Source of the DNA: Sandaracinaceae bacterium
GTDB lineage: Bacteria > Myxococcota_A > Polyangia > Polyangiales > JADJQN01
DNA: 35,749 bases
Assembly (NCBI GenBank): GCA_947483975.1
Contig: CANKOL010000008.1
Coordinates: forward strand, 1-35,749
Direction of reading: 5' to 3'
The position numbers were made by a program. Each line of letters begins with the position of its first letter. Position 1 is the first letter of the stretch. Below are positions 6,001 to 15,000 of the stretch, piece after piece.

Positions 6001-9000
6001 CGCTGCGCCCGAGCCCCATCGCCCCCGACGTGGCGCAGCCCGCCATCCGCCTCGCGATCACGACGGCGTTCGTCATCCGCGCGATCGCCCGCCTGCTCGC
6101 GCCTCTGCTCGACGTGATCGAGCACACGAGCTTCAACGCGCTGATCGCCGCGCGGATGCTGCGCGCGGGCAAGAGCGGCTTTCTCACGGCGATCGGCACG
6201 CTCTCGATCCTCGCCGTGTCCGTCTCGTCCTGCGCGCTGACGACGACGCTCAGCGTGATGGGCGGCTTCCGCCAGGACCTCAAGCGCAAGATCCTCGGCA
6301 ACAGCGCGCACGTCGTCGTGGACCGTGAGCACGGCACCTTCGACGGCTGGATGCCGATGCTCGCGCGCGTCCGCTCCGTGCCCAACGTGATCGGCGCCTC
6401 GCCCTACGCGGCAGGCGAGGTGATGGTCTCGAGCGCGTCGAACCTCTCCGGCGCGGTGCTGCGCGGCATCGATCCGGCGACCGCCTCGCAGGTGACGGAC
6501 CTCGAGCGCAACCTGAAGCGCGGGCGCATGGCGTACCTGCGGCACCCCGAGCAGCTCGTGGATCTGCCGCGCAATCAGATCGACGGCGCCCTGCTCCCGC
6601 CCGACCGACCGCTCTTCATCCGGCCCGACGCGGGCGCGCCGGTCGTCGATCCGACCGACGAGGCGCACGCCGGGAGCGGGCTCGCGCTCGATCTCGACAG
6701 CATCCTGGCAGAGGCGCGCGACGGCGGAGTGGGCTCGAGCCCCATCGCGGCGGACGCCGGCCTACCCAGCCTCGCCAGCGCCGAGCCTCCCGCTCTCGGC
6801 GACCCGCGCGATCGCACGCCGCACGATCCGCGTGACGACGGGCTGCGCGGCGGCGGCCTGCACCTCGACGACTACCTCCTCCCCGACGACGATCTCGGGC
6901 CGCGGCGCGAGGTGCTGCCCGGGATCATCGTCGGCCAAGAGCTCGCGCGCACGCTCCGCTTGTTCGTCGGCGACGAGGTGAGCGTCGTCTCGCCGCTCGG
7001 CGGGCTCGGTCCAACGGGCCCTGTGCCGAAGTCGCGCGCCTTCCGCGTCGCGGGGATCTTCTACAGCGGCATGTACGAGTACGACATGAAGTACGTGTAC
7101 GTGATGCTCCCCGTCGCGCAGGACTTCCTCTCGACCGGCGACGCGATCACCGGCATCGAGATCAAGGTGCGCGACGTCGAGCGCGCGCCCGACGCGGCGA
7201 TCGCGATCCGCCGCGTGATCGACCGCAGCGACGTGCGCGTCCGCGACTGGCAGGAGACGAACCGCAACCTCTTCGGCGCGCTCGCGCTCGAGAAGCTCGC
7301 GATGTTCATCGCGCTCGGAATAGCCATCATCGTCGCGGGCTTCTGCGTCTTCGGAACGCTCACCCTGATGGTGCAAGAGAAGGCGCGCGAGGTCGGGGTG
7401 CTGAAGGCCATGGGCACCAAGCCCGGCGGCATCGTCGGCGCGTTCCTGTTCGAGGGCGTGCTGATCGGGCTCTTCGGCTCGAGCATCGGCCTCGGCGCGG
7501 GCTACGTCGCGTGCTTCGCGGCGGAGCACTTCGGCGTGCAGATGAACCCCGAGGTCTATTACATCGACAAGCTCCCCGTGGCCGTCGACGGGACGGAATT
7601 CCTGATGGTCTTCGTCGCCTCGGTCGCCGTCTGCATGCTCGCGACGGTGTTCCCCGCGGTCCTCGCGAGCCGGCTCAAGCCGGTGGACGCCCTCCGCTTC
7701 GACTGAAGCCGTTTGGATTGGAGAACAGGCCGTGGCCAAGTCGCTCGTGATGGTCGAGAAGCTGCAGAAGAAGTTCCTCCACGAGGGGCGCGAGGTCGCC
7801 GTGCTCAACGGGATCGACCTCGGCATCGACGAGGGGGAGATGCTCTGCGTCGTCGGGCAGTCGGGCGCCGGCAAGAGCACGCTTTTGCACCTGCTCGGCA
7901 CGCTCGATCTGCCGACCGCCGGGCGCATCGTCTACGACGGCGTCGACGTGACGAAGATGTCGAGCGCGCGCCTCGCCGAGTTCCGCAACGAGAAGCTCGG
8001 CTTCGTCTTCCAGTTCCATCACCTGCTGCCTGAGTTCACTGCCCTCGAGAACGTCATGATGCCGGGCCTCATCCGCGGGCAGCGGCGCGCGGAGGTGACG
8101 CAGCGCGCGCAGGCGCTGCTCGAGGAGGTCGGGCTCGCCCATCGCCTCAGCCACCGCCCAGGCGAGCTATCGGGCGGCGAGCAGCAGCGCGTCGCCCTCG
8201 CGCGCGCCCTCGTCATGAACCCGCGCCTCGTGCTCGCGGACGAGCCGACGGGCAACCTCGACAGCAAGACGAGCGAGGCGATCCACACGCTCTTCTTCGA
8301 GCTCAACCGCACCAAGGGCATCACCTTCCTGATCGTGACGCACTCGCGGGAGCTCGCCGACATGATGCCGCGCAAGGTCACGATGCGCGACGGCAAGGTC
8401 GAGAAGGACGAGCAGCAGCACGGCTTCACGCTGCCCGCCGCGGCAGTGCCTGTCGGCGACGACACGCTTGACCCCCCTACCCCCCACGGCTAAACACGGC
8501 CGCTCTTGTCTACTCGCATCACCACCCTGCTCCTGCTCGCTGCCCTGGCGCTCGCCGGTGCGCCGCGCGCGCTGGTTTTTGCTCAGGATGCGGGCGTTCG
8601 CGGGGCGAGCGCAGACGCGGGCACGCCCATCGCGGGCGACGAGGATGAGGCCGAGCCTGAGGGCGAGGAGTACGTCGAGGGCGAGCCGCAGGTCGCGGTG
8701 CCTCAGACGATCTGCCAAGGCCGCATGATCGGCCGGATTCGCGTCGAGGGTGCGGAGCGCGTCGCCGCAGAGGACGTGCTCGGCTCGATGCGGCTGCGAC
8801 GCGGTCTGCCGTGCACGGACGCGGAGGTCACGCGCGACGCTCGCGCAGTCTGGGATCTGGGCTACTTCGATGATCTCGCCGTCGAGGCCGAGCTTTCCGG
8901 CACGACGCTCGACCTCGTCATGCGCGTGCACGAGCGCCCGGCGATCGGGCGCATCCGCTACGTCGGCAACGACGCCATCGCCGACTCGGACCTCGACGAG

Positions 9001-12000: not shown

Positions 12001-15000
12001 TCATTTCCCGGGGCAGCCGGTGTTCCCGGGGATGTTGATCATCGAGGCGATGTCCCAGCTGATGGGCGTACTCGTCTACGCGTCGGAGCCCTTCGACAGC
12101 ACGCAGAAGCTGATGCACGTCGTCGGCGTCGAGCGCGCGAAGTTCCGCAAGGCCGTCATCCCCGGCGATCGCATGGAGATCGAGATCGAGGTATCGAGGC
12201 GCCGCTCCAACATCTGGAAGTGCGCCGGCCGCGCGACGGTGGACGGCGTGCTGGTCGCGGAGGCGGACCTCCTCGCGGCGATCACGGACCGAGACGCGAC
12301 GTGACGGACCCGCGCACCCACGCGCGGTATCTGACCTACCGCGAGACGCACCAGTACTTCCGACGCCCCGATCGGCCCATGCTCGATTGGGAGGCGTGGC
12401 AGGCGCTCGACGCGGAGCTCGTCACGCTCGCGCCGCTGCAAAAGACGGGCACCCCCGAGGAGCGCGCGCGGCTGAAGCTCGTTCGCGCGCTGCTGCTGAA
12501 GGACTGACCTTGCGCTACAACCGCGCGGTGCGCCGCCACCTCGCCGCCCTGGTCACCGCCTCGGTCCTCGCGTCGACGGCTACGGTCGCGCTCGCGGACG
12601 ATCCACCTATCCCGGCCGCGGCGCCGGCGGCGGCGCATCGCCCCGTGCGCGACCTCGCCGCGCTGGTCGCGCGCGCTGAGGAGCGCTGGCCAGGCGTGTC
12701 CGCCGCGCAGCACAAGATCGCCGGCGCCGAGGCGCGGCTGCAGGAGGCGTGGGTCTCGCCGTTCTTTCAGCTGAACGCGACGGGCACCTTCGCGATGGCG
12801 CCCGGCGCGAACGGCACGCCGACGTTCTCGCCCGACTCGCAGCTGCCACTCGACAACCCGTGGGGCCCGTCCCTCGGGATTCGCGTCGAGGGCACGGTCC
12901 CGCTCTACACCTTCGGCAAGCTCGGCGCTGCGCGGGACGCGGCGCGCGCCGGGATTCGCGCCGCAGAAGCCGAGAGCGACAAGGCGCACGCGCAGGTGCG
13001 CCTCGACGTTCGCCGCGCCTACTTCGCGCTGGGGCTGGCGCTCGACGCGCAGCAGATGATGGGCGAGGGGCGCAGCAAGATTGACCGCGCCGTGCGGCGC
13101 CTCGACGAGCGGATCGCCGCCGACGACCCGGACGTCAACGAGATGGACCGCTGGCGCCTCGCGTCGACGCTCGCTGAGATCGAGGCGCGCGCCTCGGAGG
13201 CCGAGCGGCTCGGCAACGTGTCGCGCGACGCGCTCGAGATCATCACGGGTGAGACCGGCTTCGACGTGCCGGATTGCCCGATGACCGCCGTGGAGCTGCC
13301 GCTGCGGCCGCTCGCTTGGTATCAGCAAGCGGCGCGGCTCAGCCGACCGGAGCTCGGGATGCTCCGCGCCGGCGTCAGCGCCCGCGACGCAGCCGCCGAC
13401 GCCGCGCGCGCGCAGTACTTCCCCGATCTCGCGCTCGCGCTGACGGCCGGCTACACGTGGACGCCGGGCATCACGAACCAGAGCAACCCGTTCATCCCGG
13501 ACCCGGCGAACGCGCCGTCGCTCGGCGCAGGGCTGGTCGCCCGCTGGTCGCTCGACCTCTACGGCGCCAACCGGCGCAGCGCGCGCGCCGACGAGGAGCT
13601 CCTCGAGGTGCGCGATCGCCTCGACGAGGCCGACGCCGGGCTCGATCTCGAGGTCGCGACCGTGTTCGAGGAGCTAGGCGACGCGCGCCGACGCGAGCAA
13701 GCCTGGGGCCGTGGACATCGCGAGACGCGCGCCTGGTTCGTCGCCGCGGCGCAGGCGTATCAGGTCGGCACCGTCGAGCCGCGCGACCTCGTCGACGCCG
13801 TCCGCGCCTACTTCAGCGCCCGCTTCAGCCACGTGCAGGCGATCCAGGACGTCAACGTCGCGACCGCGAAGCTCGAGCGCGCGACGGGCACGGAGGTGCT
13901 CGCGGCCGACGCCTGGGAGCGCCGCTGCGACGCCGCGGCCGACGCGCCCTGAGCGCCATTGAATGACCGCAGCGATGCGGACGTCCGAACTGACGATGCG
14001 ACAGGAACTCCAGATGTCCCGCCTCCTCTCCATGGTGCTCTCGCTCGTCCTCGCCCTGGCCGCGCTCGCCGGCAGCGCTGCGCACGCCCAGGACGCGAGC
14101 GCCGCCCAAGCCTACCTGCGCAGCCAACACACCCAGGTGCAGCAGCTGATGCGGCACCCCGTGCGCGGCACGGCGGCGGTGGAGGCGCGCAAGACGCAGC
14201 TCACGCACGCGCTCAGCGAGCTGCTCGACTACACGGAGCTCGCGCATCGGGCGCTCGGCGAGCACGAGGCGCAGGCGACGCCGGCTCAGCGCGCCGCCTT
14301 CGAGGCGCTGCTGCGGCAGCTCGTGGAGCGTAGCTACCAGAAGAGCCTCGAGAGCACGGTCGACTACGAGGTCCGCTACGTCAGCGCGGACGCCGGTGCG
14401 ACGGGGGTCACGGTCCGCACCGTGGCGCGGTCGCGCTCGAACGGCCGTGAGCCCGAGGTCAGCATCGACTACTCGCTGCACCAGGTCGCTGGCGCTTGGC
14501 GGGTCTTCGACGTCGCGACCGACGGCGTCAGCCTGGTGCGCAACTACCGCTCGCAGTTCCACCGGATCGTCGTCCGCAACGGGATCGACGCCCTCCTCGC
14601 CAAGATGCGCGAACGCCTGGCGAACGAGGGCGATCTGTGAGCGCCTAGCGCGCCCGGGGTCGGCTCGACCCCAGGCTCGACCGGGCCCGAGCGACGGCTA
14701 CACCACGAGGGCCTTGAGGCCCTCGGAGTCGACCAGCACGATGCGACGGTGGTCGAAGATGACGAGCTTGCGCCGCTTGAGGTCGCCGAGCGTCAGGGTC
14801 ACGGTCTCCCGCGTGGAGCCGACGTAGCTGGCGATCTCCATGTGGGTGAACTTCACGCCGATCAGCGTGCCCCGCGACTCGGGGATGCCGTAGTTCTCGG
14901 CCGCCTCGAGCAGGAACTCGACGACCCGCGACTCGACGGTGCGTGAGAGCAGCGCCTCGACCCGCGCTTCGGCGGCGCGCCGACGCGCGCTCACGATGAC

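Follow-up and report, generated by a model that had tools for sequence, protein, structure and literature searches.

Lipopolysaccharide and its absence in diderm bacteria

Lipopolysaccharide (LPS) and its Lpt exporter are regarded as near-essential in Gram-negative bacteria, and E. coli suppressor strains with Kdo-less lipid IVA envelopes are known. In the class Polyangia, Sorangium cellulosum So ce56 was reportedly described by Keck et al. in 2011 (JBC 286:12850) as a myxobacterium that lacks LPS, and this strain contains sphingolipids.

According to the excerpts available of the papers cited here, Sorangium is LPS-free (PMC6372800), ornithine lipids have been reported in So ce56 (PMC12971839), and the exceptions to LPS named in reviews are Borrelia, Treponema and Sphingomonas (PMC9393093, PMC13721041). 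In Sphingomonas and in lipid A-deficient Caulobacter, sphingolipids are reported to replace lipid A or permit its loss (PMC9393093, PMC13721041), with the support for lipid A loss described for Caulobacter in particular (PMC9393093), where the additional proteins LptC2/F2/G2 have been proposed to export sphingolipids (PMC11324152). Borrelia burgdorferi, another diderm without lipid A genes, is reported to keep a six-protein Lpt system (PMC10353723), and Kdo-less lipid IVA envelopes are also mentioned (PMC9393093).

An outer membrane gene cluster without lpx genes

The window analyzed here is the 35,749-nucleotide stretch of contig CANKOL010000008.1 from the Sandaracinaceae bacterium genome GCA_947483975.1 (G000), a bin that is 81% complete and consists of 524 contigs with an N50 of 12.9 kb. 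It comes from the same class as So ce56 and likewise appears to represent a diderm without LPS. On its forward strand, a lolE/lolC-like lipoprotein-release permease (5415..7706; Pfam FtsX and MacB_PCD), which is a diderm marker, is followed by an ABC ATPase (7732..8493; Pfam ABC_tran), designated lolD-like from its position between lolE and bamA, and by bamA itself (8506..11073), encoding the outer membrane protein insertase with five POTRA domains (5e-63) and an Omp85 domain (9e-60). Next are ompH/skp, encoding a periplasmic chaperone (gene model 11147..11851, likely start 11228; Pfam OmpH 5e-29), and fabZ (11858..12304; Pfam FabA 8e-33). A small conserved open reading frame of about 68 amino acids (12301..12507), with tblastn matches in three of the five loci tried (L031, L032 and L033), precedes genes for a TolC-family outer membrane channel (12387..13952, likely start 12510; Pfam OEP 3e-30) and a MlaC-family periplasmic lipid carrier (13963..14640; Pfam MlaC 7e-36), all on the same strand. 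The gene order is lolE-lolD-bamA-ompH-fabZ-tolC-mlaC, without any lpx gene.

The survey's finding that the bamA-ompH-fabZ block lacks lpxD and lpxA was borne out. Only 6 bases (11852..11857, forward strand) separate ompH from fabZ at the site where LPS-positive relatives carry lpxD, no lpxA follows fabZ, and tblastn detected no lpx remnant, whereas the order ompH-lpxD-fabZ-lpxA is present in G151, G229, G023 and G002. The same survey had also counted lpxB among the missing neighbors of fabZ; this does not hold, as lpxB lies tens to hundreds of kilobases away in LPS-positive Polyangia.

The tolC-mlaC pair was considered as a new substitute for Lpt. It occurs in four of the five genomes examined, both LPS-positive and LPS-negative, and because the LPS-positive G023 and G012 have it too, it is ancestral rather than an innovation. 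In other orders, the outer membrane genes checked were tolC-mlaC, which are present in G184 and G009. Taken as a whole, G000 encodes BamA, Skp, Lol, TolC and TonB receptors for outer membrane biogenesis, and Mla is also kept.

Absence of lipid A, Kdo and Lpt genes

Profile searches of G000 gave no match to LpxC, LpxB, LpxA, LpxK, WaaA, KdsA or LptF/G, and no match to LptB at E<=1e-60. Six-frame searches with profiles built from Polyangia genes were equally empty for LpxA/B/C/D/K/I/L, WaaA and KdsA/B, and for LptA, LptD and LptF/G. Apart from noise, the residual matches were to generic hexapeptide proteins and to ATPases of the LivF type; the best LptB-like protein, for example, is LivF, and the top matches to LptF/G and LptD are noise.

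Several ancestral sites are empty in G000 although their flanking genes are assembled, namely ompH|fabZ, the site upstream of rpoN and the site after rnd. Upstream of rpoN, G023, G262 and G234 carry lptA-lptB, whereas G000 has a TonB receptor and G184 has pyrG directly. The site after rnd holds lpxB in G262, G203 and G234. Also empty in G000, likewise between assembled flanking genes, are the site after the gene that precedes lptD and the site beside tatA, where family f2 (see below) has lptF. The rseP-lpxC site is weak evidence, the two genes being adjacent in two of four f2 loci. The earlier claim that G000 has no lpx, kdsA, waaA or lpt gene thus agrees with both curated and class-tuned profiles and with the emptied sites. 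At the level of genes, the lipid A, Kdo and Lpt sets have been deleted from G000, which is predicted from this to be an LPS-free diderm.

With an 81% complete bin and an N50 of 12.9 kb, such absences might be artefacts of incomplete metagenome bins, and in a six-frame control 26 of 30 housekeeping genes were found in G000, with pyrG among the four missing. However, the assembly would need to have missed genes at no fewer than six unlinked sites at once (0.19^6 = 5e-5), and flanks are assembled at several sites. Negative results also come from G270 of the same genus, from G292 of the same family (94% complete, in about 20 contigs), from G286, G220 and G116, each assembled as a single contig, and from whole families. 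We therefore regard a bin artefact as extremely improbable.

Distribution across the class Polyangia

A sample of 301 class genomes, drawn round-robin over orders, contained 49 with LpxC, which is an order-balanced and not a species-weighted fraction; among genomes at least 90% complete and at most 5% contaminated, the count was 47/272. LpxB was found in 48/301, three of these being weak partial matches, and LpxC, LpxB, LpxA and LpxK co-occur across genomes. LpxC is entirely missing from 23 of 30 sampled families, including f20 (0/73), f17 (0/44), f15 (0/37) and f3 (0/28). These counts uphold the view that most of the class lacks LpxC, although in the order of G000 it is more frequent (26/79) than the 10/60 given before. 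Judging by gene content, most sampled Polyangia would keep an outer membrane yet have lost the genes for LPS synthesis and export, apparently several times.

Lineages that retain lipid A genes

Family f2, probably Polyangiaceae, keeps LpxA/B/C/D/K at ancestral sites in about 24 of 36 genomes (LpxA 23/26, LpxK 19/21, LpxC 25/36, LpxB strong in 24 of 36). Its LpxD was identified by NCBIfam in G151 and G229, and its LpxC retains the EH and HKxLD motifs. G004 aside, all 24 f2 genomes searched were without WaaA, which is present in G023, G002 and G013, while KdsA was absent from the three f2 genomes examined. In these lineages of presumably Kdo-less lipid A, a gene for an ArnT-like glycosyltransferase adjoins lpxB. 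G004 differs in that lpxD-lpxA-lpxC-waaA-heptosyltransferase-lpxK form a compact island, apparently an acquired one; contamination is unsupported as its source, since its GC content agrees with other G004 contigs.

The patchy distribution, the divergence of Lpx and Lpt in f2 and the island of G004 would fit a single early loss in the class, after which f2, G234 and the small orders that are LPS-positive regained lpx and lpt horizontally. We consider this very unlikely, because the genes of f2 and G234 are scattered over ancestral sites beside native genes (ompH-lpxD-(fabZ)-lpxA, lptA-lptB-rpoN and rnd-lpxB), an arrangement over several unlinked sites that transfer would not recreate. The Spt tree places the Lpx-positive G234 with the family of G000 (96%), and the OmpH of G234 is nearest to that of G000. 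The idea of one class-wide state of loss is not supported: several lineages, this close relative among them, still hold the pathway at its ancestral positions, and loss was therefore probably repeated. In the Spt tree, the single gene tree from which the number of losses derives, at least four changes in Lpx state are needed, two of them forced by strongly supported branches.

Divergent Lpt proteins and the limits of detection

The near-absence of LptF/G from the order, as claimed earlier, proved to be partly a blind spot of Pfam. Lpx-positive f2 genomes also carry very divergent LptA/B/D/F/G that Pfam misses, and the Pfam LptD model (PF04453) is uninformative, matching none of 48 genomes, LPS-positive ones included. 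For the divergent f2 LptD, an alignment-based AlphaFold model has a pLDDT of 81 and matches LptDE in Foldseek (E 9e-21, TM 0.62). The initial view that f2 produces lipid A with no Lpt at all was ruled out by the finding of lptA-lptB-rpoN, LptF/G and LptD. Within f2, Lpx and LptD vanish together: LptD is present in 13/13 Lpx-complete genomes vs. 0/11 Lpx-negative ones. Outside f2, the same LptD query missed five of eight LPS-positive genomes (G001, G012, G002, G023 and G234), and the class LptF/G profile, with six candidates scored per genome, reached 12 of 36 f2 genomes. Since Lpt proteins evolve fast and the queries have a short reach, the absence of Lpt in distant orders is weaker than that of Lpx, and Pfam-level calls of Lpt absence are unsafe in this phylum.

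It might therefore be argued from the f2 proteins, and from the short range of LptD queries outside f2, that an extremely divergent Lpt bridge has outlived lipid A and now transports sphingolipids or glycolipids, with Borrelia (PMC10353723) and Caulobacter (PMC11324152) as reported precedents. However, LptD tracks Lpx exactly in f2, where the query is sensitive, and G000 is empty even with unfiltered profiles that reach other orders, has no LptB-type ATPase and lacks lptA and lptB at the rpoN site. The LptA family was found in the LPS-positive G262 and not in G270, G286, G214 or G184. Weak LptF/G matches in f1, f3, f16, f17 and f20 are FtsX/MacB permeases, DUF6056, YhhN and MlaE proteins, judging from 9 of the 14 Pfam matches and both f17 matches inspected. 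LptA/B/D/F/G retained without Lpx, as in Borrelia, was found neither in G000 nor in Lpx-negative f2 genomes, and a hidden bridge seems unlikely.

Sphingolipid genes

The Spt-like gene of G000 (C56:11991-13223) encodes a protein that has the Sphingobacterium SPT as its best PDB match (1e-70) but falls under all NCBIfam Spt cut-offs, and that is distinct from the BioF and Kbl of the same genome; aminotransferases on C59, C43 and C51, considered as Spt candidates, are AspAT-, BioF- and Kbl-like instead. As the protein is below the cut-offs and its gene sits in a FAAL-ACP-ketosynthase cluster, the product could be another amino-lipid. The two genes after spt in G226 have homologues in G000 on C92 (E 3e-85) and C42 (44% identity). 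The names bCerS and CerR are given from a position beside an Spt gene and from a fold of the GNAT or epimerase kind rather than from a family model.

In the order of G000, Spt-like genes occur in 60/79 genomes, with a second type in 13/13 tested, and bCerS-like genes in 21/22. In f2, type I is present in 17/36 and the second type in 13/13 tested without type I. The Lpx-keeping f2 thus has Spt-like genes of both types, contrary to the survey's finding that the family without Spt is the one that keeps LpxC, and sphingolipid genes occur in Lpx-positive genomes too.

That sphingolipids replace LPS throughout the class is suggested by Sorangium, for which it reportedly holds (Keck et al. 2011), by the near-universal Spt-like and bCerS-like genes in the order of G000, and by bCerS-like genes in 8/22 f17 genomes. 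We find this unlikely, since at E<=1e-120 none of 221 genomes from other orders has the G000-type Spt and, among 105 Lpx-negative genomes of other orders, bCerS-like genes are strong in 13, weak in 11 and absent in 81. The best match to the Spt model groups with Kbl in 9 of 10 placed Lpx-negative genomes of other orders, and six further ones have no match at 1e-80. The proposal of a sphingolipid operon in place of LPS may stand for the order of G000, but not class-wide, and not as an operon in G000, where the three genes lie on three separate contigs; by these gene counts, a sphingolipid-substituted outer membrane does not appear to be the state of the class.

Proposed evolution of the Polyangia envelope

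Taken together, it is probable from the comparative evidence that LPS was lost repeatedly and stepwise, that G000 is an LPS-free diderm, and that a ceramide pathway made the loss tolerable in its order. Ancestral gene order suggests that the Polyangia ancestor had the full LPS pathway, as would still be represented by the full gene sets of f11 and f22. An intermediate stage may be seen in lineages with lipid A and Lpt but without WaaA (f10, and f2/f7, in which Lpt is also fast-evolving and shortened), and joint loss of Lpx and Lpt would be the end state in most families. In the order of G000, the ceramide pathway (Spt-like, bCerS-like and CerR-like) would predate lipid A loss and probably made it tolerable; sphingolipids may then occupy the outer leaflet, which they would reach independently of Lpt, perhaps on carriers of the Mla type or others. 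In other Lpx-negative orders, another lipid would have to take this role, because most of their genomes are without sphingolipid genes.

Compared with So ce56, which is one strain, the pattern extends to 23 of 30 sampled families and includes repeated losses, WaaA-less intermediates and lineages without recognizable sphingolipid genes. Unlike in Caulobacter, no Lpt component was detected in Lpx-negative Polyangia, and the Spt-like gene of G000 lies in the cluster described above. Borrelia is host-restricted with a small genome, whereas Lpx-negative Polyangia are mostly free-living with genomes of 3-11 Mb. The f2, f10 and G234 lineages probably make a lipid A backbone without Kdo transfer and in this resemble Kdo-less lipid IVA envelopes, but compared with the E. 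coli suppressors the state would be natural and lineage-wide, accompanied by an Lpt system that is divergent and shortened and by a gene for an ArnT-like glycosyltransferase beside lpxB.

The LPS-free state of Sorangium was known before; the class-wide, stepwise and Lpt-free pattern was not found in the literature searched. More tentatively, and with slightly less than even confidence, we propose a reduction series from full LPS through lipid A that lacks Kdo and is served by a reduced Lpt bridge to neither lipid A nor Lpt. In this series, most of one family would expose a Kdo-free lipid A decorated by an ArnT-like enzyme, and whole orders without LPS, Lpt and known sphingolipids would use an undescribed lipid and an Lpt-independent route. 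A large-genome, mostly free-living class would have dropped LPS and Lpt several times, with intermediates still living. The many Lpx-negative Polyangia without an obvious substitute lipid may represent a large unexplored case of LPS-free outer membranes, and the class makes it testable what LPS serves, which pre-adaptation permits a cell to lose it, and by what means lipids fill an outer membrane that has no Lpt.

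Absence of the LPS Pathway from the Sandaracinaceae Genome

Curated models for LpxC, LpxB, LpxA, LpxK, WaaA, KdsA, LptB, and LptF/G, every one of which gave matches in control genomes, found nothing in the Sandaracinaceae bin (G000; 5.29 Mb, 524 contigs, 81% complete). Polyangia-derived profiles or single queries for LpxC, LpxB, LpxK, WaaA, KdsA, KdsB, LpxI, LpxL, LptA, LptD, and LptF/G were also unmatched in its six frames, and the LpxA/D profiles reached generic hexapeptide proteins alone (E ≥ 5e-16). Of the housekeeping controls from the same loci, 26/30 were recovered, a few perhaps as paralogues.

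By Pfam, the window (contig C8 of G000, 1-35749) reads prfB-lysS-lolE-lolD-bamA-ompH-fabZ-tolC-mlaC, with bamA at 8506-11073 and fabZ at 11858-12304. The order is ompH-lpxD-fabZ-lpxA in four LPS-positive genomes (G151, G229, G023, and G002; behind bamA in the last two), and G234 has the variant ompH-lpxD-lpxA. In G000 the ompH-fabZ gap is six bases, and Polyangia LpxA/B/C/D/I used as tblastn queries detected no remnant. The reported lack of lpxD and lpxA is thus borne out, with the small correction that lpxB, also listed as a fabZ neighbor, lies outside the block in this class (G023, G002, and G151). None of the 86 ORFs scanned, of 135 listed downstream of 18 Polyangia-like bamA loci, was an lpx gene. 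At loci L043 and L048 gyrA follows bamA and ompH-fabZ is relocated. A small forward-strand ORF (12301-12507, ~68 aa) overlaps the fabZ stop and is kept after ompH in three loci whose blocks are without fabZ (L031-L033). The window also encodes, at 18402-21566 on the reverse strand, a roughly 1000-aa protein with TPR and GT41 parts that resembles O-GlcNAc transferase.

Other ancestral sites are similarly empty. Upstream of rpoN lie lptA-lptB in G023, G262, and G234, a TonB receptor in G000, and pyrG directly in G184; rnd is followed by lpxB in G262, G203, and G234 and not in G000; behind the G000 counterpart of the gene that precedes lptD in family f2 stands an unrelated gene; and no lptF stands beside tatA in G000. 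Because the genes flanking these emptied sites are assembled, most of the controls were found, and two relatives at 94% completeness, G270 from the same genus and G292 from the same family, likewise yielded no LpxC, LpxB, LpxA, LpxK, WaaA, LptF/G, or LptD, bin incompleteness, the doubt attached to the survey's finding, does not explain the absence, which stands.

Predicted Lipid A Without Kdo Transfer in Family f2

Family f2, in the same order as G000, represents an INTERMEDIATE state, in which Lpx is retained, WaaA is unfound, and Lpt is retained but missed by Pfam. LpxA occurs in 23/26 chosen f2 genomes and LpxK in 19/21, LpxD is also kept, and LpxC looks catalytically intact from its sequence. 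WaaA was found in none of 24 f2 genomes (G004 excluded), nor in G234, f10 (0/4), f12 (0/1), or f23 (0/1), and KdsA in none of three f2 genomes; G023, G002, and G013 do have WaaA.

Gene order revealed the f2 LptA (PF03968, 8e-9) and LptB (top NCBIfam model lptB, under cut-off) ahead of rpoN. A class LptF/G profile, which matches solved LptF at 2e-33, finds LptF/G in 12/36 f2 genomes, including two training-set genomes. A 620-aa f2 protein without Pfam match matches LptD clusters in the Atlas (0.97), and its predicted fold is that of LptD (pLDDT 81; Foldseek 8.8e-21; TM 0.62). This divergent LptD is present in 13/13 Lpx-complete and 0/11 Lpx-negative f2 genomes, and absent in G004; Lpx and Lpt therefore go together. 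As a counterpoint, the f2 LptD query missed 5/8 LPS-positive genomes outside f2, so the case for Lpt absence in distant orders depends on the LptF/G profiles, the G184 result for LptA, and the junction of pyrG with rpoN.

In 5/5 f2 loci an ArnT/PMT_2-like membrane glycosyltransferase comes after lpxB (e.g., L112:6701-9411 and L113:8700-11387). It is a candidate decorator of Kdo-less lipid A that has no counterpart in G000.

Probable Repeated Loss Across the Class

LpxC was found in 49/301 Polyangia genomes (47/272 at high quality), LpxB in 48/301 (three weak), and LptF/G above the Pfam cut-off in 23/301. Seven of 30 families have LpxC: f10 (17/17), f11 (2/2), f12 (2/2), f22 (1/1), f23 (1/2), and, in the order of G000, f2 (25/36) and f7 (1/4); families at zero include f20 (0/73), f17 (0/44), f15 (0/37), and f3 (0/28). 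These tallies include G243 (unpublished), never as sole basis. The proposed loss in most of the class is upheld for this sample, which is order-balanced, since genome handles rotate through about eleven orders; the species-weighted loss would fall below 84% should f2 hold more species than any other family. That family is probably Polyangiaceae, because BamA of a "Polyangiaceae bacterium" (L048) is nearer to three f2 genomes (50-61% identity) than to f3 and f8 (43-46%).

The loss is prevalent, but a single event does not fit. In a type I (G000-type) Spt-like protein tree of 32 genomes of the order, f7, including Lpx-positive G234, forms a 96% clade with the family of G000, and Lpx-negative f2 genomes are nested among Lpx-positive ones, giving at least four state changes, two forced by strong branches. 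A type II (Bacteroidota-like) Spt tree likewise intermingles both states. OmpH of G234, which adjoins lpxD-lpxA, is nearest to that of G000 (58% vs 45-48%). Repeated loss is favored over regain, because the genes in f2 and G234 occupy several ancestral sites. A true regain, possibly of a re-acquired cluster, may be the compact island of G004 (C47; L151:7575-16681), which holds lpxD-lpxA-lpxC, waaA, and three GT9 heptosyltransferases and has lpxK close by; LpxB, LptD, and LptF/G were unfound in this genome.

Sphingolipid Genes and the Outer Leaflet

The suggestion that a sphingolipid operon is kept instead of LPS holds only in part. G000 has an Spt-like enzyme (C56:11991-13223; top solved match Sphingobacterium SPT, 1e-70; under NCBIfam cut-offs), a bCerS-like GNAT (C92), and a CerR-like protein (C42), spread over three contigs rather than joined in one operon. 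The C56 cluster (L196:6522-13223) has two divergent arms, thioesterase-ACP-ACP-FAAL (FAAL, fatty acyl-AMP ligase) and KS-KS-Spt (KS, ketosynthase; Spt, the Spt-like gene), and would be an assembly line dedicated to the acyl chain of an amino-lipid.

Type I Spt-like genes occur in 60/79 genomes of the order and 0/221 outside (E ≤ 1e-120), and type II in 13/13 tested f2 genomes without type I. The type II gene stands either in the order spt-bCerS-cerR or directly upstream of ompH, within the operon that lost lpxD and lpxA; the latter holds for four Lpx-negative genomes of f2 (L317:8264-11213 in G214; L267, L270, and L275). In G214 and G244 fabZ follows ompH. Many type II proteins carry a Pfam-less N-terminal extension of 100-150 aa (L263:1153-2688 and L267:1489-3147).

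bCerS-like genes are present in 21/22 genomes of the order, including LPS-positive ones, whereas of 105 Lpx-negative genomes of other orders 81 lack them, 13 have a strong match, and 11 a weak one. The top Spt-model match clusters with Kbl in 9/10 such genomes placed in a tree, in a search that divergent Spt below 1e-80 could escape. Therefore, sphingolipids look like a pre-adaptation in the order of G000, resembling what is described for lipid A loss in Caulobacter, and not a class-wide substitute. The tolC-mlaC pair (12387-14640, forward strand) is ancestral, common to 4/5 genomes tested across orders, and retained in both LPS-positive and LPS-negative ones; together with the Mla components present in G000, it might provide a lipid route filling the outer leaflet.

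Implications

The LPS loss is real and partly anticipated in the literature. Older chemotaxonomy reported that hydroxy fatty acids are missing from Sorangiineae and Nannocystineae, and in this it foreshadowed part of the pattern. We found no class-wide LPS survey in full-text literature, and subscription-journal envelope surveys or supplementary tables may contain the pattern. Sorangium So ce56 was reported to be LPS-free (Keck 2011), a term search of a paper on Kdo2-lipid A evolution (PMC3087551) returned no mention of myxobacteria, and a 2026 review (PMC13721041), in the portion covered, names Borrelia and Sphingomonas and not Polyangia. The pattern is richer than the survey had it: LPS and its exporter were lost in steps and repeatedly, and the class includes intermediates that lack Kdo as well as lineages for which no substitute is known.
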